Part shown: piece after piece, positions 8,389 through 22,955 of the stretch
How positions within the stretch are numbered: position 1 is the stretch's first letter
Layout: each line of letters starts with the position of its first letter
Virus record (IMG/VR): IMGVR_UViG_2541047790_000011
Length of the DNA stretch: 22,955 nt
Origin: a virus
Taxonomy: Duplodnaviria; Heunggongvirae; Uroviricota; Caudoviricetes
Strand: one strand, 5' to 3'
Translations under genes and position numbers: made by a program
The notes under the pieces: generated by a model
What the model was told of the DNA's origin: nothing
Seen by the model: only the letters and a program-made list of their open reading frames with translations
Databases searched by the model: none

Positions 8389-8949
8389 ATGAAAAACACC
8401 GATTTTGAAATCCGCACATCTGAACTGACCGCCAGCAATAAAAAGCTGGTGGGGTATGCCGTTCGCTGGAACAGCCTTTCAGAAATTATCTGGGACGAAT
8501 TCCGCGAACAGTTCACGCCGGGGGCTTTTGCTGACTATCTGGCGACGGGTAATGATGTGCGCTGCCTGTATGAGCATGACTATACCCAACTGCTGGGGCG
8601 CACCAAATCCGGCACTCTGGTACTGACTGAGGATAACACCGGGTTACGTTTTGAACTGACACCGCCGGATACCCAGCTTGGAAAAGATGTGCTTACGCTG
8701 GTGGAGCGTGGCGACATTACAGGAATGAGCTTTGGTTTTCGCGCATTATGCGAGGAGTGGAGTATCGCGCAAAAACCGTATCTGCGTACCGTAACCGCCG
8801 CTGAACTCCGTGAAATCACAATAACGTCGATGCCTGCTTATCCAGAATCTGGCGTGGAGATTGCCCACCGTTCGTTGTTTGCACAGCACCCTGAATTACG
8901 TCCGACAGGAAATAATCTTCATCGCTGGTCTGAGCTGGCGGGGTTGTGA
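8389..8949 (+). CDS. Prohead (head maturation) protease, HK97 family
   Basis: 186-aa product with motifs typical of HK97-type prohead proteases (GYAVRWN, GAF, CLYEHD, GMSFGF, MPAYPESG). GGAG 8 nt upstream of the ATG. Confidence 0.85.
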   Translation: MKNTDFEIRTSELTASNKKLVGYAVRWNSLSEIIWDEFREQFTPGAFADYLATGNDVRCLYEHDYTQLLGRTKSGTLVLTEDNTGLRFELTPPDTQLGKDVLTLVERGDITGMSFGFRALCEEWSIAQKPYLRTVTAAELREITITSMPAYPESGVEIAHRSLFAQHPELRPTGNNLHRWSELAGL

Positions 8950-8950
8950 T

Positions 8951-10165
8951 ATGTGGTGGCCTTTTAGTCGTAAAAAAAGCGAGCAGCGTAACCTGTCCAT
9001 TGATGATTTTCTGGCGCTGTCCGGCGTACCGAATACCGGATCCGGAGAATATGTTTCTGCCGGGACGGCTGAATCATTGCCTGCAGTGATGAATGCGGTT
9101 TCTGTCATCGCTGAGGCGGTGGCCACGATGCCGTGTTATCTGTATCTGGTACGTAATGACAAGGGCAGGGAGGCGCGGGAATGGCTGGACAGTCACCCGG
9201 TAGATATTCTGCTGAATGAGCAGCCTAATTCGTGCCAGACACCTTACCAGTTTAAACGCACAATGATGCGTCACTGCCTGCTGAACGGTAACGCCTATGC
9301 GGTTATTGAGTGGGGGCAGGACGGGCAGCCAAAATCACTTCATCCTTATGCGCCGGGGTGTGTTGTACCGGAACGCACAGGCGCACACAAATACCGCTAT
9401 ACCATCACCGAACCCTGTACAGGAACGGTGCGCACGTATTTACAGGAAGAAGTTCTGCATCTCCGCTATGCCTCGGATGATGGCTTTCTGGGGCGTTCCC
9501 CCGTCACGATTTGCCGTGAGGCGCTGGGGCTTGGCCTTGCTCAACAGCGTCACGGAGCCAGCATTATGAAAGATGGCATGATGGCGGCAGGGATTATCAC
9601 GTCAGGCGAATGGCTGGACGGCGTGAAAGGTAAACAGGCATTGGATGCTCTGGAACGCTACAAGGGGGCGAAAAATGCCGGAAAAACGCCAATCCTTGAA
9701 GGGGGCATGGATTACAGGCAACTGGGAATGAGTAACCAGGATGCGGAATGGCTGGCCTCCCGTCGCTTCTCCATTGAAGACATCGCCCGCATGTTCAACG
9801 TATCGCCTATTTTTCTGCAGGAATACAGCAACAGCACCTACAGCAATTTCAGCGAGGCAAGCCGCGCGTTTCTGACCATGACAATGCGCCCGTGGCTGGC
9901 GAACTTCGAACAGCAAATCAAGGCCGCTTTGCTGGTGGCTTCTCCCGTACCTGGTACCCGTTATCTGGTTGAGTTTGATTCAGCCGATTTATTACGCGCC
10001 ACACCCACCGAACGTTATGCCACGTATGAGAAAGGGATTAAGAACGGGATCATGAATCCGAACGAAGCCCGTGAGCGTGAGGGTATGCCGCCGCGTGAAG
10101 GTGGTGATGAGTTCAGCCAGGCATGGAAACAGACTGTGGAAATTAAAGGGAGAAAAGATGAGTGA
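8951..10165 (+). CDS. Phage portal protein, HK97 family
   Basis: About 405 aa from the ATG at 8951, immediately after the protease stop. Size and conserved-looking segments (for example EDIARMFNVSPIFL) fit portal proteins. The ORF track start at 8861 overlaps the protease. Confidence 0.85.
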   Translation: MWWPFSRKKSEQRNLSIDDFLALSGVPNTGSGEYVSAGTAESLPAVMNAVSVIAEAVATMPCYLYLVRNDKGREAREWLDSHPVDILLNEQPNSCQTPYQFKRTMMRHCLLNGNAYAVIEWGQDGQPKSLHPYAPGCVVPERTGAHKYRYTITEPCTGTVRTYLQEEVLHLRYASDDGFLGRSPVTICREALGLGLAQQRHGASIMKDGMMAAGIITSGEWLDGVKGKQALDALERYKGAKNAGKTPILEGGMDYRQLGMSNQDAEWLASRRFSIEDIARMFNVSPIFLQEYSNSTYSNFSEASRAFLTMTMRPWLANFEQQIKAALLVASPVPGTRYLVEFDSADLLRATPTERYATYEKGIKNGIMNPNEAREREGMPPREGGDEFSQAWKQTVEIKGRKDE

Positions 10166-10460
10166 AGCCAAAATTACACCTGATGAAGTCAGGGCACATC
10201 TTCGACTTGATGATGATTTATCCGGTGAAGGCGAACTTCTGAAAATGTATACCGATGCGGCGCTGGAAGCCTGCCAGAAGCATATCGGGAAACGTTTTGA
10301 AGACGGGCTGGAATTTACCCCGGCAATGCGTGTTGGTTGCCTGATGTACATCGCTTTCCTGTACGAGAACCGGGAAGCGGTTTCACCAGTGGAGCACTCG
10401 GAACTGCCTATGGCTATTTCTGCGCTCTGGTCAGTTTATCGTGACGTAGGGGTGTACTGA
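10158..10460 (+). CDS. Head-tail connector / adaptor protein (gp6-like)
   Basis: About 100 aa starting MSEAKITPDEVRAHLRLDDDLSGEGELL, which is the characteristic N-terminus of gp6-like head-tail connectors. AAGGGA upstream; overlaps portal end and HNH start. Confidence 0.65.
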   Translation: MSEAKITPDEVRAHLRLDDDLSGEGELLKMYTDAALEACQKHIGKRFEDGLEFTPAMRVGCLMYIAFLYENREAVSPVEHSELPMAISALWSVYRDVGVY

Positions 10461-10900
10461 TGCCGTGGCAACCATTAAGGCGATGCACTGAGCCTGGCTG
10501 TAATAAGCGCGTGAAGTCCGGCAAGTGTGAAGAGCACAGGCGGGCTGCATGGCGTGCAGAGGATGCCAGACGGGGACACCGCCGCGCGCGCGGGTATTCC
10601 CGACAGTGGGACAAATACCGCGCCCTGTACCTGAGCAAAAACCCGTTATGCGTGAGTTGTCTGGCTAAGGGGATTTATACGCCAGCTCTTGTGGTGGATC
10701 ACATCATTCCCATCAATGGCGGCGGTGATGTTCTCTTCTGGCCTGAGTGGAACCACCAGGCATTGTGCCAGACGTGCCACAACCGTAAGACGACACGGGA
10801 AGATCCCGCCACGAAAGCGAACCGTAAGGCGGGCATGTATCGCGATCAGGAAGAACGGGCGGCACACCGTAACGACTGGATGTATGGCGATGATGACTGA
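10460..10900 (+). CDS. HNH endonuclease (terminase-associated)
   Basis: 146-aa product with cysteine clusters and the HNH core (VVDHIIPINGGG ... NHQALCQTCHNRKT). Lies immediately upstream of terS/terL, as in cos-packaging HK97-like phages. Confidence 0.85.
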   Translation: MPWQPLRRCTEPGCNKRVKSGKCEEHRRAAWRAEDARRGHRRARGYSRQWDKYRALYLSKNPLCVSCLAKGIYTPALVVDHIIPINGGGDVLFWPEWNHQALCQTCHNRKTTREDPATKANRKAGMYRDQEERAAHRNDWMYGDDD

Positions 10901-11188
10901 ACAGGAGCAAAACAGGCTGATACGTGGGTTGATAAGGCAGCGTGACACATGGAAGACACAGGAGACAGGGCACAAAGCCAACAGGACAGGGCGCACAAAA
11001 CGCACCACAGCGAAGCGATTAACCGACCGTGACCGCGAGGTCATGGAATGTTTTCGCAATCGCTGGTGAGGCCGTCAGAGGGGGTGGGGGTGGTTTTCAG
11101 GACGAAACCGTCCCTGCCGGACACCGACCGCCTCCCCAAATTTTTATGCACGGGAATTTTTTGAAAAATAATCTGACGAAAAATAAGC

Positions 11189-11545
11189 ATGGCAAGACCA
11201 CCGAAAGCCCCCGCCTACCTGGATGATATCGCCGTGAAGCAGTGGCGGGAAAAATCGCGGCAGCTTGCGGAACGGGGAGACCTGACCCCCGCCGACTGGA
11301 GCAATCTGGAACTGTATTGCGTCAACTACTCCATTTACCGGAAAGCCGTTGCAGACCTTGCGGCGCGCGGGTTCAGCATTGTTAACAGTCAGGGCGGCGA
11401 GAGCAGAAACCCCGCATTAAGCGCAAAATCCGACGCTGAAAGAGTGATGATAAAAATGGCCTCCTTGCTCGGTTTTGACCCGATAAGCCGCCGTAAAAAT
11501 CCACCGGAAACAGAAGAAGAGGACGAGCTTGACCGCCTGGAATAA
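11189..11545 (+). CDS. Terminase small subunit (P27-like)
   Basis: 118-aa product whose pattern (W---L-ERGDLTPAD---LELYCV-YS-YRKA ... acidic C-terminus) resembles P27-family small terminases; immediately precedes the large terminase. Confidence 0.75.
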   Translation: MARPPKAPAYLDDIAVKQWREKSRQLAERGDLTPADWSNLELYCVNYSIYRKAVADLAARGFSIVNSQGGESRNPALSAKSDAERVMIKMASLLGFDPISRRKNPPETEEEDELDRLE

Positions 11546-13190
11546 GTACGCAGAAGACGTAAAAACGGGCAAAATTCCGGCCTGTAAACGGCTGAAACAG
11601 GCCGTTAAACGGTACTTTTCGGACCTTGAAAGCCCCCTTTACACGTTCGATCGTGAGGTTGTGGAGCGGTTTATTGCCTTTTCCAGGGTGTGCGCGCACG
11701 TAAAAGGGCCGATGCGTGGCAGACCCATTGAGCTGGAGCCGTGGCAGCAGTTCGCCTTTGCGTGCATCCTCGGCTTTAAGGTTAAGGCCACCGGACGGCG
11801 CAAATACACGAGCGCCTTTATCGAAGTGCCGCGCAAAAATGCGAAATCCACGACCGCCGCGATTCTGGCTAACTGGTTTCTGATTATGGAGAACGGTCAG
11901 CAGGATATCTACACCGCAGCGGTGAGCCGTGACCAGGCGCGGATCGTCTTTGATGATGCGCGTCAGATGTGCCTTTTATCCCGACCGTTACGCAGGCGGG
12001 TGAATATTCAGGCGCATAAGGTGATACACCCGAAAACCAACAGCCTGTTAAAGCCACTGGCAGCAAAAGCGGCAACCATTGAGGGGACAAACCCGAGTCT
12101 TGCCATTGTGGATGAATATCACCTGCACCCAGACAACGGGGTTTATTCCGCACTTGATATGGGGATGGGCGCACGTCCCGAAGGGCTGTTATTTGCCATT
12201 ACCACATCGGGCAGTAACGTCGTTTCAGCCTGTAAGCAGCACTATGATTATTGCTGCCAGATCCTGGACGGCGAAGAGGTCAACGATTCAATTTTTGTAC
12301 TGATTTACGAACTGGACGACGAAAACGAGGTTGATGATCCGGCGATGTGGATAAAGGCTAACCCTAACATCGATGTTTCCGTCGATCGTGAAAAACTGGC
12401 CTCAACCATCCAGAAAGCGCGGGGTATTCCGTCGCAATGGGTGGAAATGCTCACCAAGCGATTCAATATCTGGTGTCAGGGGGCTACGCCGTGGATGGGT
12501 AACGGTGCATGGGCGGAGTGTGCCGGAACGTTCGCGGAGGCGGATTTATACGGGCAGGAGTGCTACGCGGGGCTGGACTTATCATCAACCAGCGATATTT
12601 CCAGCGTGTGCTATGCCTTCCCGGTCGGTAAAAAGATTATGCTGGTTTCCCGTCACTATCTGCCGGAATTTCAGCTACAGAATCCCGCCAATAAAAACCG
12701 CGCCATCTATCGCCAGTGGGTAAAGGCGGGCTGGATACGCACAACACCGGGTGACTGCATTGATTATGACCGTATCCGTGATGACATCATGGCGGATGCA
12801 GAGAATTTCAATATCAGGCTGGTGGGCTTCGATACATGGAACGCCACGCACCTGAGGACGCAGTTACAGGGCGCAGGATTTGAGGTGGAGCCGTTCCCGC
12901 AAACCTACCTCAGATTCAGTCCGGCGGCGAAATCGTTCGAAGTTTTTGTTAACCGGAAGGTGATTGTGCATCGTGGTGATCCGGTGCTGGCCTGGTCAAT
13001 GAGTAATGTTGTGATGCAGAGTGACGCGAACGCCAATATCAAGCCGAACAAGAAAAAATCATCCAACAAGATAGACCCGAGCGTTGCGGCGCTGATGGCG
13101 TTTGGCACATTCCAGGCAGAGCACGAGGACTTTGCATTCGATATGAGCGACAGCCACAAAGAGCGGCTTGCGGCGTTTGATGGGGTATGA
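11529..13190 (+). CDS. Terminase large subunit
   Basis: 553-aa product with an N-terminus typical of Terminase_1-family large subunits (TAWNKYAEDVKTGKIPACK), an ATPase region and a C-terminal nuclease region. The only in-frame start near the N-terminus is TTG at 11529, overlapping terS; the start codon is uncertain. Confidence 0.85.
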   Translation: MTAWNKYAEDVKTGKIPACKRLKQAVKRYFSDLESPLYTFDREVVERFIAFSRVCAHVKGPMRGRPIELEPWQQFAFACILGFKVKATGRRKYTSAFIEVPRKNAKSTTAAILANWFLIMENGQQDIYTAAVSRDQARIVFDDARQMCLLSRPLRRRVNIQAHKVIHPKTNSLLKPLAAKAATIEGTNPSLAIVDEYHLHPDNGVYSALDMGMGARPEGLLFAITTSGSNVVSACKQHYDYCCQILDGEEVNDSIFVLIYELDDENEVDDPAMWIKANPNIDVSVDREKLASTIQKARGIPSQWVEMLTKRFNIWCQGATPWMGNGAWAECAGTFAEADLYGQECYAGLDLSSTSDISSVCYAFPVGKKIMLVSRHYLPEFQLQNPANKNRAIYRQWVKAGWIRTTPGDCIDYDRIRDDIMADAENFNIRLVGFDTWNATHLRTQLQGAGFEVEPFPQTYLRFSPAAKSFEVFVNRKVIVHRGDPVLAWSMSNVVMQSDANANIKPNKKKSSNKIDPSVAALMAFGTFQAEHEDFAFDMSDSHKERLAAFDGV

Positions 13191-13480
13191 CGAGAATGAG
13201 CGAAACCGAACTACTAAAAATAATCCGCCGTGTTACCGGAGCCAGCCAGACAGCAGACAAACAGGAGGCCACGCAGCCGGACAGCGTGATAGCCGAAAAT
13301 TACGCGCGTGTGGTGGCTGAGGTGATGCGCCGTGACGGTATTGAGCTTAACGGCGTGGATATGCGCAACATACGAACCAGAGTCCTTGAGTTGCTGGCAT
13401 ACCGTCGCCGTTCTCAACAACGGAGGGAGAGCGCGAAAAATACTTATCAGTGGAAGAAGCCGGAACGGTTGCGGCGGTAA
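13187..13480 (+). CDS. Hypothetical protein
   Basis: 97-aa ORF whose start overlaps the terL stop (ATGA); last gene before the island boundary region. Confidence 0.45.
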   Translation: MTRMSETELLKIIRRVTGASQTADKQEATQPDSVIAENYARVVAEVMRRDGIELNGVDMRNIRTRVLELLAYRRRSQQRRESAKNTYQWKKPERLRR

Positions 13481-13593
13481 CTTGCAGATATTCCCGATAA
13501 CGTAAAATTGCGTTGGCTGGCAGAGTGCAAATTTGCACGATGGCCTAACCCATTGATTGTTTCGGAAACCTCAATTTGAGGAGGCCGGACAGC

Positions 13594-13628
13594 GTGACGG
13601 AGGGTGACAACCAGTGACACGCCGTGAC
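13594..13628 (+). repeat. Four GTGAC direct repeats at exact 10-bp spacing (candidate integrase arm-type or packaging-protein sites)
   Basis: GTGAC at 13594, 13604, 13614 and 13624, phased by one helical turn, in the non-coding stretch between the last satellite gene and clpS. Confidence 0.4.
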
Positions 13629-14406
13629 AAAAAGACGGTTTAACCATCCATTAAAAATCGACGTGATTTTGTGCTTTCCGTATGAGGTGGCCAGCGTCAT
13701 TTTTTAGTGAGAAATTCTGGTCAGGGGCGTTGGCTGAATGGTTATTTTATCGTGCCCATGCACAGGGAGGGGGCGGGTAAAATCTCTGGAGGTGATGCCT
13801 GTCAGGACCGCCGCCTGACCCTTCCTCACATCGCCGCAGGTTCGAAAACTTTTTTTGTGTCAGGTGCGCACGGAATTGATAGATAAAACCTATATTAAAA
13901 AATCACGGAAGCCGTGCCATTGCTGGAGCAGTCAAAAATTCCACATCTCACGGCAGGCAAAAAAAGCGAATTTTGGGCCAGTTGAGGATAAAAAAGGGCT
14001 CACTAGTTTTGCACATCCTGGTATCGGGGTCGTCAGCCTCCCGCCAGTAACTAGGTAACTAATCACGCTGGTGGGCATGATGCCGATGCCGGGATCTCGG
14101 TATCGGTTTATCTGTGATCATCCACCAGCTTGATGACAGATAACAGGGAGTCATAACGGTTAAAGCGTGTTGATCTTTGTTCGTGGTTGTTCGATATTGT
14201 TCGTAAAGCGGTGTAGTTAATGGTGTAGTTAATTTCGCTGTTTTTGACGAGCTTATCATTTGCAACGCAATGAAAAACAAAGACTAATTAACAAAATGCT
14301 ATAAATGATAGTTATCTATCATGTGGAGTAGATTGGTCAGGCAAATAAGCTCTTGTCAGCGGCAGGGCGTTCTGCCGATAACCGTAACCGAAGATGATAA
14401 CTGACA

Positions 14407-17246: not shown

Positions 17247-17334
17247 GTTCACTGCCGTACAGGCAGCTTAGAAATTGCCGCGGATCCTGTCTGCCAATAA
17301 TGACAAGTTCACTGCCGTACAGGCAGATAAAATG
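17247..17334 (+). CRISPR. Orphan type I-F CRISPR remnant (two repeats, one spacer)
   Basis: 28-nt repeat GTTCACTGCCGTACAGGCAGCTTAGAAA at 17247-17274, 32-nt spacer ttgccgcggatcctgtctgccaataatgacaa at 17275-17306, and a second repeat at 17307-17334 identical over the first 20 nt but degenerate in the last 8 (ATAAAATG). Repeat matches the type I-F consensus from memory. No cas genes in the window. Confidence 0.7.
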
Positions 17335-17377: not shown

Positions 17378-17465
17378 TGGCGGTGAGGGGGGGATTCGAA
17401 CCCCCGATACGTTGCCGTATACACACTTTCCAGGCGTGCTCCTTCAGCCACTCGGACACCTCACC
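17378..17465 (-). tRNA. serW: tRNA-Ser (anticodon GGA)
   Basis: Reverse complement reads GGTGAGGTGTCCGAGTGGCTGAAGGAGCACGCCTGGAAAGTGTGTATACGGCAACGTATCGGGGGTTCGAATCCCCCCCTCACCGCCA: 88 nt with long variable arm, GGTTCGAATCC T-loop, anticodon GGA and encoded CCA. Confidence 0.93.
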
Positions 17466-17830
17466 AAATTGTTTTTTTGCCTGACCTCATGGGGGGCAAC
17501 GGGGCGCTACTATAGGGAGTTGGAATAAAACGGTCAAGAAGAATTTTTATGATAATTATTGTTTGCTCATACTGTAAACAAGTTGTGCAGTATATCTACA
17601 TCTGATGCGCCGCGCGATAAATAAGCCGCAATCCGTGAGATAAATGGACACAGTGCGGCTTTTCAGATACGGAAAAGGAATTACAGATTATCAGTCGTAA
17701 GCAACCCACGCTTACTGGCAAGGATGGTTTACAATGCTGAAAGCGCCTCCCGGCAATACCGCCAATCATCACTCAAACAGAAAAAATTATTGCTCATGGT
17801 TCACTCCGGTAATGAATCGTTTTACAGGCG

Positions 17831-18424
17831 TCATTCGGTCATGGAAAGATTGCTGATTTCGGTAATCCCGGCAATTTCCTCGCTGACGGATTTCAGTTCG
17901 ATTTCCAGCTTGGTGCGTTCGTTGACCAGCGCAGCTACGGTCTTACGGCGGTCTGCCAGTGACGGAAGGTTGTCATTGCCCCACGCCACGCTTTTATCCT
18001 TTTTGAGCGCTTCGGTCAGGCGGGTGGCGACCACATCCGGGAAGAAAAAGCATAACTTACGCATAACCGTCATCCCGACATCAGCCAGGGGGACATTCCC
18101 GCTCAGTCCCACCAGACGGAACAGACCAGAAATATCACCATTCTCATTTTCCAGATTACCCCAGCGTTCGGCGTTCCCTTCACTGCCGGAACCGTTGCAA
18201 AGAGCAAGCTTGAATGACTGATATTCTTCCTGCCCGAATCGCTCAATATATTCAGGAATAAAGGAACAGTAATCATTAAGCGATAATGGCATATCCTGTA
18301 ATGTGGTTATTTCACTGTTAATCTCTCCAATTCGGCGGGAGAGCTTTTCTTTCTGCTCATTCAGGGAGGCAAGATTATTTTTAACGGCGTTCAGTGCTTC
18401 GATAAGGGAAATAACAGGTTTCAT
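17831..18424 (-). CDS. Hypothetical protein (third gene of Mor-headed operon)
   Basis: 197 aa from MKPVISLIEALNAVKNNL; the start lies 1 nt after the upstream gene's stop. Coiled-coil-like N- and C-terminal segments; no recognised family. Confidence 0.5.
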   Translation of the reverse strand: MKPVISLIEALNAVKNNLASLNEQKEKLSRRIGEINSEITTLQDMPLSLNDYCSFIPEYIERFGQEEYQSFKLALCNGSGSEGNAERWGNLENENGDISGLFRLVGLSGNVPLADVGMTVMRKLCFFFPDVVATRLTEALKKDKSVAWGNDNLPSLADRRKTVAALVNERTKLEIELKSVSEEIAGITEISNLSMTE

Positions 18425-18425
18425 T

Positions 18426-19040
18426 TTAATAACTCCAGATGAAAGGCGTGGTGAGGGCGAGCGCTTCAGAATAGGAGACATTGCAGGCTGCACTTACGTC
18501 CTTTATTAAAAGGTGCTGTGCTGCCCTCTGACTGTCTGCTATGCCGTCAAACTCTGAAAAATGAACGTGTGATTCATTGTGATAAAAGCAAACCGGGTAA
18601 CAGCTTTCCATAAATTCTACCTGCGCCAGTCCCTTTACTGCTGGAGGCTGTGAGCCGAGAAAACCGATATGCTGAAGATACCAGGCACCGATTCCTGCCG
18701 GGTTGTTCGCTTCGCCGGGTCTATAAAATGCCGCAGACACTTTCCTGTAACGCCCTGCGCGTACCAGTCCCAGCAGGGTTTCATCAGGCTTAACCAGCGC
18801 GAAAAGCCTGCCGTTTTTACTTATCAGCCCAGTTGTTTCACCATAAGATGGGCTGTTGCTGGCCGGATGTCCAATACACAGCGGCGCACCATAACCCGCA
18901 CGATGATAGCCGTTATAGGCTGCCGCCATGTTGTCGATATCCTCGTCGGAAAAGGCAATTTCCTGCCCAGCCATCGTGATATGCGTTCCCGCCCGGAATA
19001 TCTCGATAGTTTTCCAGTTGCCAATATCGATATCTTTCAT
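18426..19040 (-). CDS. Hypothetical protein (second gene of Mor-headed operon)
   Basis: 204-aa ORF tightly coupled to both neighbours. The N-terminus (W-TIEIFRAGTHI--AGQEI-FS-EDIDN-AAAYN ... PLCIGHP) loosely recalls Mu-like prophage protein I / DUF-type phage proteins; this is a weak, unverified impression. Confidence 0.5.
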   Translation of the reverse strand: MKDIDIGNWKTIEIFRAGTHITMAGQEIAFSDEDIDNMAAAYNGYHRAGYGAPLCIGHPASNSPSYGETTGLISKNGRLFALVKPDETLLGLVRAGRYRKVSAAFYRPGEANNPAGIGAWYLQHIGFLGSQPPAVKGLAQVEFMESCYPVCFYHNESHVHFSEFDGIADSQRAAQHLLIKDVSAACNVSYSEALALTTPFIWSY

Positions 19041-19041
19041 T

Positions 19042-19569
19042 TTAAATTACCCCATATTTCGCATCGCGCTGTATTTTATTTTTCTTGCGTTCGGCGGCTA
19101 TAATCTGATAAATACACTGAATGGAACGCTTGTATTTTTTTGATAGTTCAAAAATAGAGATACCCTGATAAAAATCAGCCAGTATTTTTGAGTTCCTGTC
19201 GAAAGTGTTTTTTGATGCGCCCATAGGGATATATATATTCCCCCTGAAAAATGTATTCCTGAGACATTCAGTGATGGCAGGAGAAAGTTTTTCGGCTTGC
19301 GAACAGAGGTAAGGTATGGTTCCTAATGTCTGCTCAATAGATTCAGTCAGCTCCTGTAGGAAGCGAACTGCCTTAGGTGCTCTTTCTCGGTGTTCAGCCA
19401 TATACCCCTGGCAGCCACCAAGGTTATCAGAGATACCCAACACAATATGATTAGCCGCACTGCAGGACTGTTGCCGTGAATACCCTTTGTTGATCAGAAA
19501 CACTTCTATAGCATCGCCCATTGCCCCCAAAGTATCGGATGAAGCATACAATCCTTCTCTTGTAATCAT
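19042..19569 (-). CDS. Mor-family transcriptional activator-like protein
   Basis: C-terminal region RGNIYIPMGASKNTFDRNSKILADFYQGISIFELSKKYKRSIQCIYQIIAAERKK parallels the Mu Mor/C activator HTH region (G-VYIP-G ... R---I---F-G-----L---Y------IY-I---RK). GAGGTG lies 5-6 nt upstream of the ATG at 19569; the ORF track GTG at 19575 is an alternative. Confidence 0.6.
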   Translation of the reverse strand: MITREGLYASSDTLGAMGDAIEVFLINKGYSRQQSCSAANHIVLGISDNLGGCQGYMAEHRERAPKAVRFLQELTESIEQTLGTIPYLCSQAEKLSPAITECLRNTFFRGNIYIPMGASKNTFDRNSKILADFYQGISIFELSKKYKRSIQCIYQIIAAERKKNKIQRDAKYGVI

Positions 19570-19809
19570 AATCACACCTCGTCAACGATAAATATGCGCA
19601 CATAAAGCCTTTATAAAGCTTTATGAGGTGCATTACTGGTGTCATTCCATGATGCACACCACCAACAACCAAAAACGCCTTACAGAGCATTTCAATGTGT
19701 GTTATTAATGTGGATTAAGAATATGGTTTTGGGGCGAGAATGTTTTTTAATGTACTTTAGATATGACGAAGCCCCTCAAAGGAGGGGCGAGGCGGAAAAC
19801 TATTTATAA

Positions 19810-20088
19810 CTATTCCTTACTCTCCTGATCAAGACGATTACCTATCAGGTTAATCATTGCCATTGCATCAGATAGCAGGATACTGTTAACAAGTGCTAAG
19901 GGCGTCTGTGTTGATTTATCATCAACGGCAACAGAAAGTTCATCATTCAGGCGACGAACGGCCTCAAGACGGCTAAAGGCGGCTTCCCATATTTCTGTAC
20001 TCGGGGCATCAGCATTAACAAACAAAACATCGTAAGACGTTCCCTGAGACTCATGAGGACAGGCTATGAAATTAGCAGTAGCTTTCAT
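19810..20088 (-). CDS. Hypothetical small acidic protein (second gene of 2-gene operon)
   Basis: 92-aa ORF; its start overlaps the upstream gene's stop (ATGA at 20085-20088). No recognised family. Confidence 0.5.
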   Translation of the reverse strand: MKATANFIACPHESQGTSYDVLFVNADAPSTEIWEAAFSRLEAVRRLNDELSVAVDDKSTQTPLALVNSILLSDAMAMINLIGNRLDQESKE

Positions 20089-20564
20089 TTTGCAGTCCTC
20101 CGGTTAATTATAAATTTATTATAAATTTCATAACTTGCGGCATTCAGTCCTGGACTGTATTTATCTGCCAGTGAACAGGCAATGAATTCTTCAATCGATT
20201 TAGTCAGTATATCAAGCTCAGTTGTTCCGGAATAACGCAAGGCCACTCGAAATAATTCTCGGCAGTATGTTTTTTTATGGTCAATATTTTGTAACTGCTG
20301 TTGCGGTATATCACGACGTTCAAATATATTAACAAATGCATTAAGCGGGAAGCTATGATTTGCCTGCGGATATTGCTCATAGGAAAACACCACAGTATTA
20401 CCGTTGCATTCTTTAACAATTGCATTCATACCGCTGTTAATTTCAATATACCACTCTCCTATACATGGAGGATTGATAGCTTCGCTCTGTGCCTTGATTA
20501 AAGGTAAGCGGATAGTATCCACTTGGTTTGTTGCAACTGAATCGTTAGACTTGTCGTTAGCCAT
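20085..20564 (-). CDS. Hypothetical protein (first gene of 2-gene operon)
   Basis: 159 aa from MANDKSNDSV with AGGA 8 nt upstream. AT-rich codon usage by eye. No recognised family. Confidence 0.55.
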   Translation of the reverse strand: MANDKSNDSVATNQVDTIRLPLIKAQSEAINPPCIGEWYIEINSGMNAIVKECNGNTVVFSYEQYPQANHSFPLNAFVNIFERRDIPQQQLQNIDHKKTYCRELFRVALRYSGTTELDILTKSIEEFIACSLADKYSPGLNAASYEIYNKFIINRRTAK

Positions 20565-20597
20565 GACTGTTATCCTACACATAACGGTTTTTGGTTA

Positions 20598-20701
20598 GGC
20601 CATAGCAAGTGCTCGCAACATTTGTTATGGCCGTTTCTTTGGCCCTTTCCCTGTGATAAGGTATAGACCTAACAAGTAAACACTAAGCCATAGGTCTATA
20701 C
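20598..20701. promoter_or_regulatory. Divergent promoter region with two inverted repeats (candidate operators)
   Basis: IR1: ggccatagcaa (20598-20608) / ttgttatggcc (20622-20632), one mismatch. IR2: gtatagacct (20661-20670) / aggtctatac (20692-20701), perfect, 21-bp spacer. Located between the minus-strand 2-gene operon and the plus-strand RHH gene. Confidence 0.35.
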
Positions 20702-20752
20702 ATGTCAACTATCTTGAGAGATAAAAGCCAAAAAGGGGCAGGGAAAGCCCCC

Positions 20753-20893
20753 ATGTTTAACGTTAGAATATCGCCAGATTTGAAAGAACAGTTTGAAATA
20801 CAAGCAAAAAAAGAAGGTGTTAGCTTGGGAAACTGGCTCAAGGAACTTGGCAGGGCGGAACTAAAACGTAAGGGGATCGAGCCGAAAGGGTGA
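20753..20893 (+). CDS. Ribbon-helix-helix (CopG/Arc/MetJ-like) DNA-binding protein
   Basis: 46 aa from MFNVRISPDLKEQFEIQAKKEGVSLGNWLKELGRAELKR: a beta-strand followed by two helices is the RHH signature. AGGGA lies about 9 nt upstream of this ATG. The ORF-track start at 20702 has no Shine-Dalgarno and abuts IR2. Confidence 0.55.
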   Translation: MFNVRISPDLKEQFEIQAKKEGVSLGNWLKELGRAELKRKGIEPKG

Positions 20894-20919
20894 TGTTTTA
20901 GTCTCCCTGTGTTTGATTA

Positions 20920-21753
20920 AAAGCGAAATCGCTTTCACATTTAAAGTTCAAGATAGCCAATGCCATCACCAAAGCGGACAGCGCTGTCCGCTTTTCATCA
21001 GTAAAAACCACATATTTACGCCAAAACGCTCAACGTTGAGCGCTACGTACCCCGGCAAAAGCGCAAGCGTCTGCGCTTTTGGTAACAAGCAATCAGCATT
21101 TAAATGCGGACAACGTTGACCGTTTTGAGGAATCAATGTCGGCTGAGCAAAAACGACAACGTTGTCGTTTTTAAAACGGCAAGCGCTTACCGTTTCAGAT
21201 TATCGAGGCGGTAAGAGTTTACCGTTTGGTGTCAATTATGTTCAATAAGCGAAAACGTTTTCGCATTTTCTCACCTAACGCGGCAAACCTTCTTTGTCCT
21301 AGATGGAAAAACGACAGCGCTGTCGTTTCTAATCCGGGGTTCCAAACCGCTCAGCGCTGAGCGGTTCTGTGGCTTTCTTACAATCCAAATCCGCCAACGT
21401 TGGCAGATTTGCAAATATCACATATGATTGATGGTCCCGAATCACAAATGTCCCAGCGCGGGGATATTTCAAGTAGTTCAATCATTTCATGCGCTGGCAG
21501 TCATCTCCAAAACTGCGAACGCCTGCCCTTTCAGTACAGTTTGGTAATATATATTGGTAAGCTTTACTTGTAGAAATATAAAACTCCAAAAGCGCCAGCG
21601 CTGGCGCTTTGTAAGGCCAGCAATATCATTCCCAGCGCTGGAATACTAAAAGGCGGATTCCTGCATCTTAATTTGAGATGGAATCTCATGGCAATCCAGT
21701 GTTAACGTAGGGTTTTAGCCAGTACTCACGACTTGAATATGCCAGCGCTGGCA
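20920..21753. repeat. Array of at least 15 sequence-diverse palindromes with shared architecture (A-run, CG-rich arms around a CAGCGCTG or CAACGTTG centre, T-run)
   Basis: Perfect palindromes read directly: 20971-20994 (24 nt), 21027-21042 (16), 21149-21172 (24), 21249-21264 (16), 21309-21328 (20), 21345-21366 (22), 21393-21404 (12), 21589-21610 (22), 21632-21641 (10), 21740-21753 (14). Near-perfect: 20920-20935, 21057-21080, 21107-21122, 21174-21195, 21209-21224. No convincing ORF covers the array. Confidence 0.6.
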
Positions 21754-21990
21754 CATTTGAAGTCTGGTAACATCAATAATCTAATGACACCTGATGTAAT
21801 TTTGAACCCTGAACTGGAATCAACCCCAAATTTAATGGCAACAGCTATCAGCCAGATTACTGATGAACGTGACCTGCTGAACCAATTACTTGACCAAGCA
21901 CAGATGGCCGATGCATTCGAGCAATTTTCCCGAACGGTTCGGACTTCTAAACTGGCTTTTGTGAAGGAAAACAAGGGCTTTGTTGAATAA
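21739..21990 (+). CDS. Hypothetical ORF whose 3' end runs into the IS903 terminal inverted repeat (possibly insertion-truncated)
   Basis: About 83 aa from ATG 21739 (MPALAHLKSG...); the last codons (GGC TTT GTT GAA TAA) are IS903 end sequence. The start codon sits inside the 14-bp palindrome 21740-21753. Coding status uncertain. Confidence 0.3.
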   Translation: MPALAHLKSGNINNLMTPDVILNPELESTPNLMATAISQITDERDLLNQLLDQAQMADAFEQFSRTVRTSKLAFVKENKGFVE

Positions 21991-22955
21991 ATCAGATTTC
22001 GGGTAAGTCTCCCCCGTAGCGGGTTGTGTTTTCAGGCAATACGCACGCTTTCAGGCATACCTGCTTTCGTCATTTTGTTCAGCGCTCGTACCAGGGCCAT
22101 AGCCTCTGCAACCTGACCATCGTAGTCACGCAGTGTCAGTGAACCTCCGAACAGCTGTTTTACCCGGTACATCGCCGTTTCCGCTATCGAGCGACGGTTA
22201 TAATCTGTTGTCCATTTCCACCGCGCATTACTCCCGGTCAGCCGCTGATTCGCAACAGCACGGTTACGGTCTGCATATTCACCGGGCCAGTAACCCGCGC
22301 CTTTTCGGGGCGGGATAAGCGCGCTGATTTTCTTACGCCGCAGTTCATCGTGACAGAGCCGGGTGTCGTAAGCGCCGTCTGCCGATGCTGCCCTGATTTT
22401 TCTGTGAGTCTGCCGGATAAGACCCGGGAAGGCTTCTGAGTCCGTCACATTGTTCAGCGACAGGTCTGCACAGATGATTTCATGTGTTTTGCTGTCAACT
22501 GCCAGATGCAACTTTCGCCATATACGACGGCGTTCTTTGCCGTGTTTTTTGACTTTCCATTCGCCTTCACCAAAGACCTTCAGCCCGGTGGAATCAATCA
22601 CCAGATGCGCGATTTCACCTCGGGTGAACGTTTTGAAACTGACATTAACCGACTTTGCGCGCTTGCTGACACTGGTGTAATCCGGGCAGCGCAACGGAAC
22701 ATTCATCAGTGTAAAAATGGAATCAATAAAACCCTGTGCAGCCCGCAGGGTCAACCTGAACACGCGTTTAATGACCAGAACGGTGGTGATGGCGAGATCA
22801 GAATAGCGCTGAGGTCTTCCCCGTGATGAAGGCGTTGCCGACTCATACCAGGCCTGAATAGCTTCATCATCCAGCCAGAAAGTTATGGAGCCACGGTTGA
22901 TGAGGGCTTTATTGTAGGTGGGCCAGTTGGTGATTTTGAACTTTTGCTTTGCCAC
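21976..22955 (-). mobile_element. IS903 (IS5 family), partial - runs off the right window edge
   Basis: Terminal inverted repeat GGCTTTGTTGAATAAATC begins at about 21976; the internal transposase is recognisable as IS903 from memory. The ~1.06-kb element would end beyond base 22955. Confidence 0.88.
22032..22955 (-). CDS. IS903 transposase
   Basis: 307-codon ORF starting MAKQKFKITNWPTYNKALINRGSITFWLDDEAIQAWYESATPSSRGRPQRYSDLAITTVLVIKRVFRLTLRAAQGF, near-identical to the IS903 transposase as recalled. Start codon (GTG in this frame) is at the very last bases of the window. Confidence 0.9.
   Translation of the reverse strand: MAKQKFKITNWPTYNKALINRGSITFWLDDEAIQAWYESATPSSRGRPQRYSDLAITTVLVIKRVFRLTLRAAQGFIDSIFTLMNVPLRCPDYTSVSKRAKSVNVSFKTFTRGEIAHLVIDSTGLKVFGEGEWKVKKHGKERRRIWRKLHLAVDSKTHEIICADLSLNNVTDSEAFPGLIRQTHRKIRAASADGAYDTRLCHDELRRKKISALIPPRKGAGYWPGEYADRNRAVANQRLTGSNARWKWTTDYNRRSIAETAMYRVKQLFGGSLTLRDYDGQVAEAMALVRALNKMTKAGMPESVRIA

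Follow-up and report, generated by a model that had tools for sequence, protein, structure and literature searches.

We analysed a 22,955-nt stretch of DNA recorded as a virus of the Caudoviricetes (IMG/VR record IMGVR_UViG_2541047790_000011; the whole stretch is called the window below), and in it a divergent regulatory region at positions 19,810–20,893. The window is 100% identical to chromosomes of ST131-type Escherichia coli, for example those of strains KE21 and ZH063. An earlier note, made from the letters alone, had described two minus-strand genes here, which encode a protein of 159 amino acids (aa), called X in the following, and an acidic protein of 92 aa, and which are coupled by an ATGA overlap. 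Both open reading frames (ORFs) and their overlap at 20085–20088 were confirmed. What had gone unnoticed is that genes for a Mor-family activator, a protease-like protein and a coiled-coil protein lie downstream on the same strand, and that the whole block is a discrete mobile element. The genes of the pair sit in this 5-kb element, the insertion point of which lies between the tRNA gene serW and infA, the gene that follows the island in ZH063. The control region and the gene pair contain the following features.

20702–20893, plus strand: ribbon-helix-helix (RHH) protein of 63 aa, the likely repressor of the element (Pfam HicB C-terminal RHH; phrog_228)
20661–20708, minus strand: putative early promoter and operator, read from the sequence
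20708–20703, minus strand: -35 hexamer TTGACA, which overlaps the RHH start codon and is followed by a 17-nt spacer
20685–20680, minus strand: -10 hexamer TAGTGT, bracketed by the arms of the inverted repeat
20661–20671 and 20691–20701: perfect 11-bp inverted repeat GTATAGACCTA/TAGGTCTATAC with a spacer of 19 nt
20565–20640, minus strand: transcribed leader of the operon of X and the 92-aa gene, with two predicted hairpins
20598–20611 and 20619–20632: second inverted repeat, with 14-nt arms that are 86% complementary
20085–20564, minus strand: X, 159 aa; a small beta domain (SH3/Tudor-like) lies between an N-terminal peptide and a C-terminal helical domain that is conserved
19810–20088, minus strand: acidic 92-aa protein (isoelectric point 4.5), a helical hairpin after a conserved SQG(T/A)S loop

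For X, the 159-aa form was preferred to a 165-aa ORF on the basis of the RefSeq annotation and of a ..GGATAAC..ATGG context that is kept in nine related copies. The 92-aa gene has a Shine-Dalgarno sequence of its own, GGAGGA, 7 nt upstream. Comparison with orthologues gave ratios of nonsynonymous to synonymous substitution rates (dN/dS) of 0.23 for X and 0.18 for the 92-aa gene, and all genes of the element are under purifying selection (dN/dS 0.06–0.23). The co-occurrence of the pair across genomes, which the earlier note had proposed to check, is borne out: the pair stands at the same position in every related copy examined, as twelve full pairs and, in Tenebrionibacter, with a first gene reduced to a 29-aa leader, the end of which still overlaps the 92-aa start as ATGA. 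The types of X and the types of the 92-aa protein are shuffled freely between copies.

Neither protein falls into a family that can be named, as had been supposed: Pfam, NCBIfam and PADLOC returned no match for either of them, PHROGs returned nothing usable, and sequence profile searches of the PDB with both proteins returned nothing. Homologues of X are rare (42 clusters). Common to all full forms are an N-terminal peptide (~25 aa) and, at the C-terminus, a helical domain of ~65 aa with the motif ..YCRELxxVALRY..PGLNAASY.., and the middle occurs in four arrangements: none (88 aa), a small beta domain (the window form, 159 aa), a DUF3102-like domain (243–247 aa) or both (304 aa, in Pectobacterium). 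The DUF3102-like domain is absent from the X of the window, though present in the X of most copies. An exhaustive profile search located the C-terminal domain at the C-terminus of nearly all 69 representative proteins, which are 69–504 aa long. The recognisable N-terminal partners of this domain were DUF3102 (6), Bro-N (5) and anti-repressor families of PHROGs, and 15 of the 66 proteins carrying it matched the PHROG of a DUF3102-like protein of the phages proposed below as helpers.

The 92-aa family comprises 7 clusters, or 21 with a profile. Its AlphaFold model (pLDDT 86) shows a helical hairpin, before which come a short beta element and the SQG(T/A)S loop, which hardly varies; this fold is too generic for an informative fold search, and no specific fold or sequence match was obtained. 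In the model of X only the beta domain was confident (pLDDT about 85), with weak fold matches to Tudor/SH3-like barrels. The structural check suggested earlier thus delivered confident models of the 92-aa protein and of one domain of X, with fold matches that were non-specific. A tblastn search of all phage records with a 92-aa homologue gave no match. Homology of the X domains or the 92-aa family to epsilon, orf151, orf106 or cI of the satellite P4 was ruled out by sequence comparison.

The divergent gene does encode an RHH protein, and a length of 63 aa is likelier than the 46 aa given before. Control regions were compared over nine copies, which represent three sequence types; orthologues of type II lack the internal methionine, and the ATG of the long form lies at the same place in all three types, where it overlaps a conserved TTGACA on the opposite strand. 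The protein matched the Pfam HicB C-terminal RHH family at 1.3e-6, and its best PHROG was phrog_228, an Arc-like repressor family, at 4e-6. Residues 19–47 align with positions 20–48 of the 51-position HicB profile, that is, with the RHH domain alone. The RefSeq label of the protein, 'HicB family antitoxin', is misleading at this locus, as it reflects only the RHH fold. The RHH protein is 98% identical to that of the Erwinia copy, with a dN/dS of 0.06.

Both inverted repeats reported earlier are real, and only their sizes had to be revised: the perfect one has arms of 11 rather than 10 bp, and the near-perfect one has the longer and less complementary arms listed above. By our own estimate, about 0.001 perfect 11-mer inverted repeats are expected by chance in the 137-bp spacer. 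Each of the three types has a TTGACA over the RHH start, a TAnnnT hexamer 17 nt on and an inverted repeat that brackets this hexamer; the repeat is GTATAGACCTA with a spacer of 19 nt in type I, TACGTACCATTG with a spacer of 13 nt in type II and TTGTCAT(T) with a spacer of 18–20 nt in type III. Both inverted repeats are conserved in position in related elements, and the sequence of the repeat over the promoter varies by type and tracks the type of RHH protein, among three types in which RHH gene and repeat are genetically linked. This match fits a pair of element-specific repressor and operator, with binding predicted. Of the two repeats, the perfect one, which lies over the shared promoter, is the candidate operator.

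The second repeat is more likely a hairpin of the transcribed leader than an operator. It forms the first of two leader hairpins (20598–20632), and the second one is predicted to enclose the Shine-Dalgarno sequence of X and to pair with its start codon. As divergent types align poorly, the leaders were folded as single sequences, one type at a time; the two-hairpin leader appeared in all three types despite their differing sequences, with z-scores of -1.9 to -3.5. On the opposite strand the long leader hairpin is followed by a T-rich run and could act as a terminator. The minus strand at 20557–20633 also gave a sub-threshold Rfam match to the antisense RNA of R1162-like plasmids (31.7 bits against a gathering score of 55), which probably arose by chance or reflects the two-hairpin shape only.

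The remainder of the element consists of the following features.

19576–19809, minus strand: spacer between the 92-aa gene and mor, with a GC hairpin and three conserved non-coding blocks
19042–19575, minus strand: Mor-family transcription activator of 175–177 aa (Pfam Mor, 3.1e-15; phrog_532, late transcriptional activator, 4e-17)
18426–19040, minus strand: 204-aa protease-like protein (phrog_976, 1.5e-42), with the protease domain of Mu gpI-type head maturation proteases
17831–18424, minus strand: 197-aa acidic coiled-coil protein, with coiled-coil matches only, present in all copies
17603–17680, minus strand: right terminus, which reads TGATGCGCCGCGCGATAAAT..CCGTGAGATAAATGG in the inward direction and has putative transposase-binding repeats
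17597–17602: 6-bp target-site duplication TACATC; in ZH063 this hexamer is found again past the left end, outside the window
20894–21732, plus strand: palindrome-rich spacer with about 12 short palindromes
21733–21975, plus strand: 5' fragment of a 316-aa DUF3102-related gene (phrog_4623, 6e-16), interrupted by an insertion sequence (IS)
21967–21975: 9-bp duplication GAAAACAAG made by the IS
21976–22955, minus strand: IS903-like element (IS5 family), a simple insertion in the left-end gene

The pair looks like a unit apart from the Mor operon, as had been assumed, because a GC hairpin and near-invariant non-coding blocks separate the two. The hairpin lies just past the stop codon of the 92-aa gene (19771–19788; -14.4 kcal/mol, z-score -2.0). 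The blocks TAAAGCTTTATAAAGG, TCTAAAGTACATTAAAAAACAT and ATATTCTTAATCCAC (19600–19770, upstream of mor) show little or no variation across genera, from E. coli to Pectobacterium, and are better conserved than the flanking genes; TAAAGCTTTATAAAGG contains a palindrome. They are candidate activator binding sites by prediction. As the blocks were not found in the phages proposed as helpers, the idea that an activator of the helper binds them is unsupported. Mor itself is 24% identical to the Mor/C protein of these phages. The 204-aa protein has its nearest kin in BcepMu gp32 and related proteins, among them those of the Escherichia phages PhiKM and Phi06_2974 B; it is ~40% identical to gp32 and to the N-terminus of the PhiKM protease, and keeps the His and Ser positions of the helper protease. 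The 197-aa protein (dN/dS 0.16) is 39% identical to a 227-aa protein of P4-like islands and is a candidate for an alternative scaffold.

Towards the left end, the gene is across copies either a 316-aa DUF3102-related gene (phrog_4623) or a gene for a 122-aa protein that matches the N-terminus of the Mu Gp27 small terminase. The 316-aa protein is related to the DUF3102 protein encoded just upstream of the phage transposase, and the window fragment is 81% identical to residues 11–74 of the Tenebrionibacter 316-aa protein. At 20970–21610, in the gap that separates the RHH gene from the broken left-end gene, about a dozen palindromes of the AAAGCG..CGCTTT and AAACG..CGTTT types were seen, in a region that overlaps a frameshifted relative of a 79-aa ORF of intact copies; the corresponding region of intact copies contains long inverted repeats (8694–8727/8946–8979 and 9043–9074 of locus L003 in our comparison set).

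The core-genome match ends at 17602, right at the terminus at 17603. In ZH063 the sequence beyond the IS (22533–24480 of locus L001) continues the 316-aa gene, which decays, and then reaches the left terminus, with two GTGAGATAAAT repeats, and a second TACATC, so that this hexamer flanks both ends of the element. The right terminus of the window is 89% identical to the right end of longer, 7.8-kb elements. One such copy is present in three E. coli assemblies at three unrelated loci with 99.95% identity, in one of them splitting a molybdopterin oxidoreductase gene, and is flanked by the target duplications TGAAGC, GTTTGC and GCGAAT. Its ends are TGATTAGAC...GGTGGATCA, and at the junctions they read 5'-TGATTAGACATGAGATAAAT...TTTATCGCGCGGTGGATCA-3'. 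Overall the element has the end motifs TGATTAGAC...TTTATCGCGCG, 5'-TG...CA-3' ends and termini that carry repeated GAGATAAAT motifs, and 6-bp duplications were seen at four elements including the window copy. Two more insertion sites lie inside a phosphotransferase system (PTS) gene and between sbmC and dacD.

The element was found in 33 of 5426 complete E. coli genomes and has relatives of 4.4–9.6 kb elsewhere. Both end motifs stand 7.7–9.6 kb apart in Erwinia tracheiphila (two copies), in Intestinirhabdus alba and in a metagenome bin labelled 'Advenella'; the copy in Pectobacterium colocasium showed the right-end motif only, and the Tenebrionibacter form measures 4.4 kb. The gene order is conserved: the RHH gene, the divergent pair, mor, the 204-aa protease-like gene and the 197-aa coiled-coil gene, with or without a tape-measure gene, plus a DUF3102-like or TerS-N-like gene at the left end. 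This architecture is kept in Erwinia, Pectobacterium, Intestinirhabdus and Tenebrionibacter. The transposase and the MuB-like (ExeA/MuB-like) protein of PhiKM had no tblastn match in eight copies, nor were they among the genes called in the others. The full copy in the betaproteobacterial bin (locus L026, a 13-kb contig of a metagenome-assembled genome labelled Advenella kashmirensis) encodes proteins 84–100% identical to those of the E. coli copies, and mis-binning is more likely there than a host jump.

The proposed helpers are BcepMu-type phages (Bcepmuvirus: BcepMu, PhiKM and the ST131 prophages of JJ1886, EC958 and ZH063). Like the element, they have TG...CA ends, make 6-bp duplications and occupy unrelated sites; a tape measure, an activator of the Mor family, a gpI-type protease domain and pieces resembling DUF3102 and Gp27 are also common to both. 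At the right end, the window element has exactly the first 20 nt of the BcepMu-type prophages of ZH063 and JJ1886, and at the left end the agreement is about 19 out of 20 nt. Over 82 bp, the left end of the element also matches an end of Phi06_2974 B. In JJ1886 the PhiKM-type prophage begins with TGATTAGACTTGAGATAAATGACAGGG, as does the left end of Phi06_2974 B; its right end is TGATGCGCCGCGCGATAAAT, its last letters are the reverse complement of TGATGCGCCGCGCGATAAATGC, and the 6-bp duplication GAAGAA flanks it. The tape measure of the long forms is 71% identical to that of PhiKM. ZH063 carries both the island of the window and, about 65 kb away, a BcepMu-type prophage in ssuB. Of the 5426 complete E. 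coli genomes, 643 held a prophage of the helper type, among them genomes of the pandemic ST131 lineage. Unlike these phages, which measure about 37 kb against 4.4–9.6 kb for the element, the element has no DDE transposase, MuB-like ATPase, capsid, portal, terminase, tail or lysis genes; its virion-type genes are the protease-domain gene, the coiled-coil gene and, in long forms, the tape measure, and do not amount to a complete head, tail or lysis set. The RHH, X and 92-aa proteins have no counterpart in the helper phages.

The sites of the BcepMu-type prophages differ, with ssuB in ZH063 (locus L027, 1018569–1036000) and the gap between aroA and ycaL in JJ1886 (loci L018/L019), which fits insertion by transposition. 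The JJ1886 prophage carries an IS66 insertion.

Homologues of three proteins of the element were also found on a different mobility backbone. E. coli P4-like islands (loci L011–L013, 4752–12288) have a P4-type integrase, an AlpA/orf88-like gene, a cI-RNA-like region that has been called an 'ASH' ORF and an alpha-like primase, and in place of sid, psu and delta they carry homologues of the 92-aa, 204-aa and 197-aa proteins together (57%, 39% and 39% identity). These islands may be P4-type satellites retargeted to Mu-like capsids. In them the 92-aa homologue stands directly after the cI-RNA region and before the primase, which is the slot of P4 epsilon; further homologues were found among the small early genes of Pectobacterium P4-like elements, and those in P4-like elements have no X-like partner. 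The P4-type set of integrase, primase and cI RNA is present in separate islands with the 92-aa family (L011–L016) and absent from the window element. That two mobility backbones carry the 92-204-197 module speaks more strongly than anything else for these being genes of satellites.

These comparisons show the region to be the control region of a non-autonomous transposable element that is related to BcepMu-type phages and is present here as a decayed copy. Our best explanation, with a probability that we put at roughly 65%, is that the element depends on such a phage as a helper. The element would then probably be a phage satellite that parasitises a BcepMu-type phage; consistently, it is small, lacks most virion genes, and has ends, a tape measure and a protease domain matched to such a helper. 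Since it has no transposase of its own, yet near-identical copies stand at different sites, it would have to be moved in trans, and the BcepMu-type transposase is the obvious candidate for the mover. Judged by its sequence, the element is not a simple deletion derivative of such a phage, with a protease of ~40% and a Mor of 24% identity, with RHH, X and 92-aa proteins that have no helper counterpart, and with an architecture found across genera.

The element could work as follows. The RHH repressor would silence it by occupying the perfect repeat around the -10 hexamer of the early promoter, and X and the translationally coupled 92-aa protein would be made first once repression is lifted, with a leader hairpin that occludes the ribosome site of X as an additional control at translation. 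Mor would next switch on the protease-like and coiled-coil genes and, where present, the tape measure. The helper transposase would move and replicate full elements via their mimicked ends, the headful machinery of the helper would probably package them and helper particles would carry them, while the protease-like and coiled-coil proteins probably act on capsid assembly of the helper.

Several points weigh against this reading or parts of it. Mobilisation, packaging, helper dependence and the functions of both proteins are all things that we infer. The left-end gene of the window copy is broken, and because the IS903-like element disrupts it, the copy is probably immobile and inactive as a mobile element, with its regulatory and early genes intact; the tape-measure gene is also absent from the window form, as it is from that of Tenebrionibacter. 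The -10 hexamer TAGTGT is weak, the promoter was absent from the output of a simple promoter scan, and the match between RHH type and repeat type could stem from linkage rather than binding. Fold searches with X and the 92-aa protein were non-specific, and sequence comparison ruled out homology of the 92-aa family or the X domains to GemA of the helper and found none to any ORF of PhiKM or Phi06_2974 B. A profile of the 92-aa family scored 0.3 bits against P4 epsilon, which is no sequence similarity, so that only the gene position is equivalent. Finally, some P4-like elements with Ogr/Delta but without the 204-aa and 197-aa genes have members of the 92-aa family as well; these elements presumably use P2-type helpers, which argues against a target specific to BcepMu-type repressors.

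Among the closest known systems is P4. It is likewise small, and its dependence on a helper parallels the one proposed here; it has an early operon with a small helper-derepression protein, epsilon (95 aa), the slot of which is taken by 92-aa homologues in P4-like islands, and its delta corresponds to Mor as the element's own activator of late genes. P4 has genes directed at the capsid, as the element probably does. Unlike P4, the element has no integrase, alpha primase-helicase, cI RNA, sid or psu, and it has transposition ends instead of att sites. The control region resembles immI of phage P22, where the RHH repressors Mnt and Arc control the antirepressor Ant, together with the antisense RNA sar. 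In both cases an Arc/Mnt-like RHH gene diverges from a small operon under tight control, with an operator (here a putative one) over the promoter and a further layer of control (here a predicted one) where translation begins. By sequence, neither X nor the 92-aa protein is homologous to Ant or Arc. Laboratory mini-Mu constructs and non-autonomous transposons likewise have ends but no transposase and move in trans. Unlike mini-Mu, the element is natural and conserved, was not built by deletion, and has its own immunity region, activator and morphogenesis-type genes.

The alternative for the element as a whole is that it is what is left of a defective prophage: random deletions in a BcepMu-type phage would have produced it, it would have no independent existence, and the pair would belong to the ordinary early genes of the phage. 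In favour of this, helper phages contain relatives of the termini, of the tape measure (71%), of the protease domain, of Mor and of the DUF3102-like pieces, and the window copy is itself decayed. Against it, one compact gene set with intact ends is met again in several genera, near-identical copies stand at several loci, most genes are 24–40% identical to those of the helper or absent from it, three of them recur in satellites of the integrase type, and purifying selection acts on all genes. A remnant is thus improbable. For the role of the pair within a satellite, we tentatively favour a protein-binding module, anti-repressor-like or derepressing the helper and aimed at helper or host, because of the epsilon slot of the 92-aa homologues, the Bro-N and anti-repressor partners of the C-terminal domain of X, and the layout similar to that of Mnt/Arc and Ant in P22. 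The two proteins might instead be transposition or replication adaptors that recruit the helper transposase or a host factor to the ends of the element, given that X carries in most copies a DUF3102-like domain, to which the helper protein encoded directly before the transposase is homologous, and that the 15 matches to this PHROG among 66 proteins with the C-terminal domain of X point the same way. We consider this unlikely: the X of the window has no such domain, the C-terminal domain of X also has fusion partners of the Bro-N and anti-repressor types, and the 92-aa family occurs in satellites that have an integrase and a primase and do not transpose.

Defence functions fared less well than the anti-repressor-like role. 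Cargo against phages, by superinfection exclusion or by interference with the helper or other phages, would suit the frequency of defence cargo in satellites, the variable middle of X and the type I-F CRISPR-Cas system that other E. coli hold at the clpA-infA site. It is nevertheless quite unlikely, as the PADLOC check proposed in the earlier note gave no match for either protein and the pair comes first in the early operon under the repressor of the element in every copy, which marks it as core regulatory content and not as a swappable slot. PADLOC-DB v2 likewise gave no match for the RHH, Mor and 204-aa proteins, and for the 197-aa protein only a weak coiled-coil LmuB-like one (E 0.002). The evidence weighs most heavily against a toxin-antitoxin module, with the RHH protein as antitoxin or the 92-aa protein neutralising a toxic X. 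The RefSeq label of the RHH protein and the small coupled pair with its acidic second member in AT-rich mobile DNA had made such a module attractive, and the RHH fold does match the C-terminal part of the HicB profile. Unlike HicAB, however, the locus has no HicA toxin, no N-terminal domain of HicB and no co-transcription of the regulator with a toxin, since the RHH gene diverges from the pair; no toxin family was found among the neighbours in Pfam, NCBIfam or PADLOC, and neither protein matched a toxin-antitoxin or defence profile. Domain shuffling has made X anything between a 29-aa leader and a protein of 304 aa, with the 92-aa gene kept throughout; the types of the two proteins recombine freely, which is unexpected for a toxin and its cognate antidote, and 92-aa homologues occur without an X-like partner in P4-like elements. 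A toxin-antitoxin role is therefore very improbable, and the stand-alone module envisaged earlier, whether of this or the anti-phage kind, gives way to the reading of the unit as the early or immunity region of a satellite-like element.

The element is apparently undescribed. In a literature survey of incomplete coverage, so that earlier work is possible, we found no description of satellites of transposable or BcepMu-type phages, of DUF3102 with a transposase, or of these gene families. To our knowledge, all established satellite families (P4-like, PICI, cf-PICI, PLE and PICMI) integrate by means of their own integrase. It is conceivable, though somewhat short of an even chance, that these elements are the first natural satellites without integrase or replicon, borrowing the transposase of the helper by mimicry of both ends, with the RHH gene and the divergent pair as a switch that senses or triggers the helper, and with the 92-aa protein as a factor for helper derepression that P4-like satellites also have. 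A satellite carried by the transposition machinery of its helper would, if confirmed, represent a new way to parasitise phages and a natural counterpart of mini-Mu. With a helper this common, such elements could have consequences in clinical strains for gene transfer, for the induction of prophages and, since copies interrupt genes, for insertional mutagenesis. The reading also gives context and testable roles to three orphan families: the 92-aa family, the C-terminal domain of X and the DUF3102-like proteins of transposable phages.

Along the whole window, the layout is as follows.

1–13.7 kb: a small phage-like island
thereafter: yljB, clpS and clpA
17378–17465: tRNA-Ser gene serW
thereafter: the island described here
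from 21976: the IS903-like element

The description of the locus as accessory DNA beside an IS holds: G+C is 41% in the region of the pair and 51% in clpS-clpA, and the locus belongs to a discrete mobile element into which the IS903-like element has inserted. A megablast search of phage and plasmid collections with the locus gave no match. The first part of the window (1–13700) is a separate island with integrase, primase, large terminase, portal and capsid genes, named after the KE21 annotation, and looks like a capsid-forming PICI-type satellite; ZH063 does not have it, though the rest of the window is common to both. Between clpA and serW, on the plus strand at 17307–17334, Rfam scored a match to a CRISPR direct repeat (CRISPR-DR4) at 29.7 bits, below the gathering score of 35; it may be a solitary repeat remnant because type I-F CRISPR-Cas occupies the clpA-infA site in other strains.

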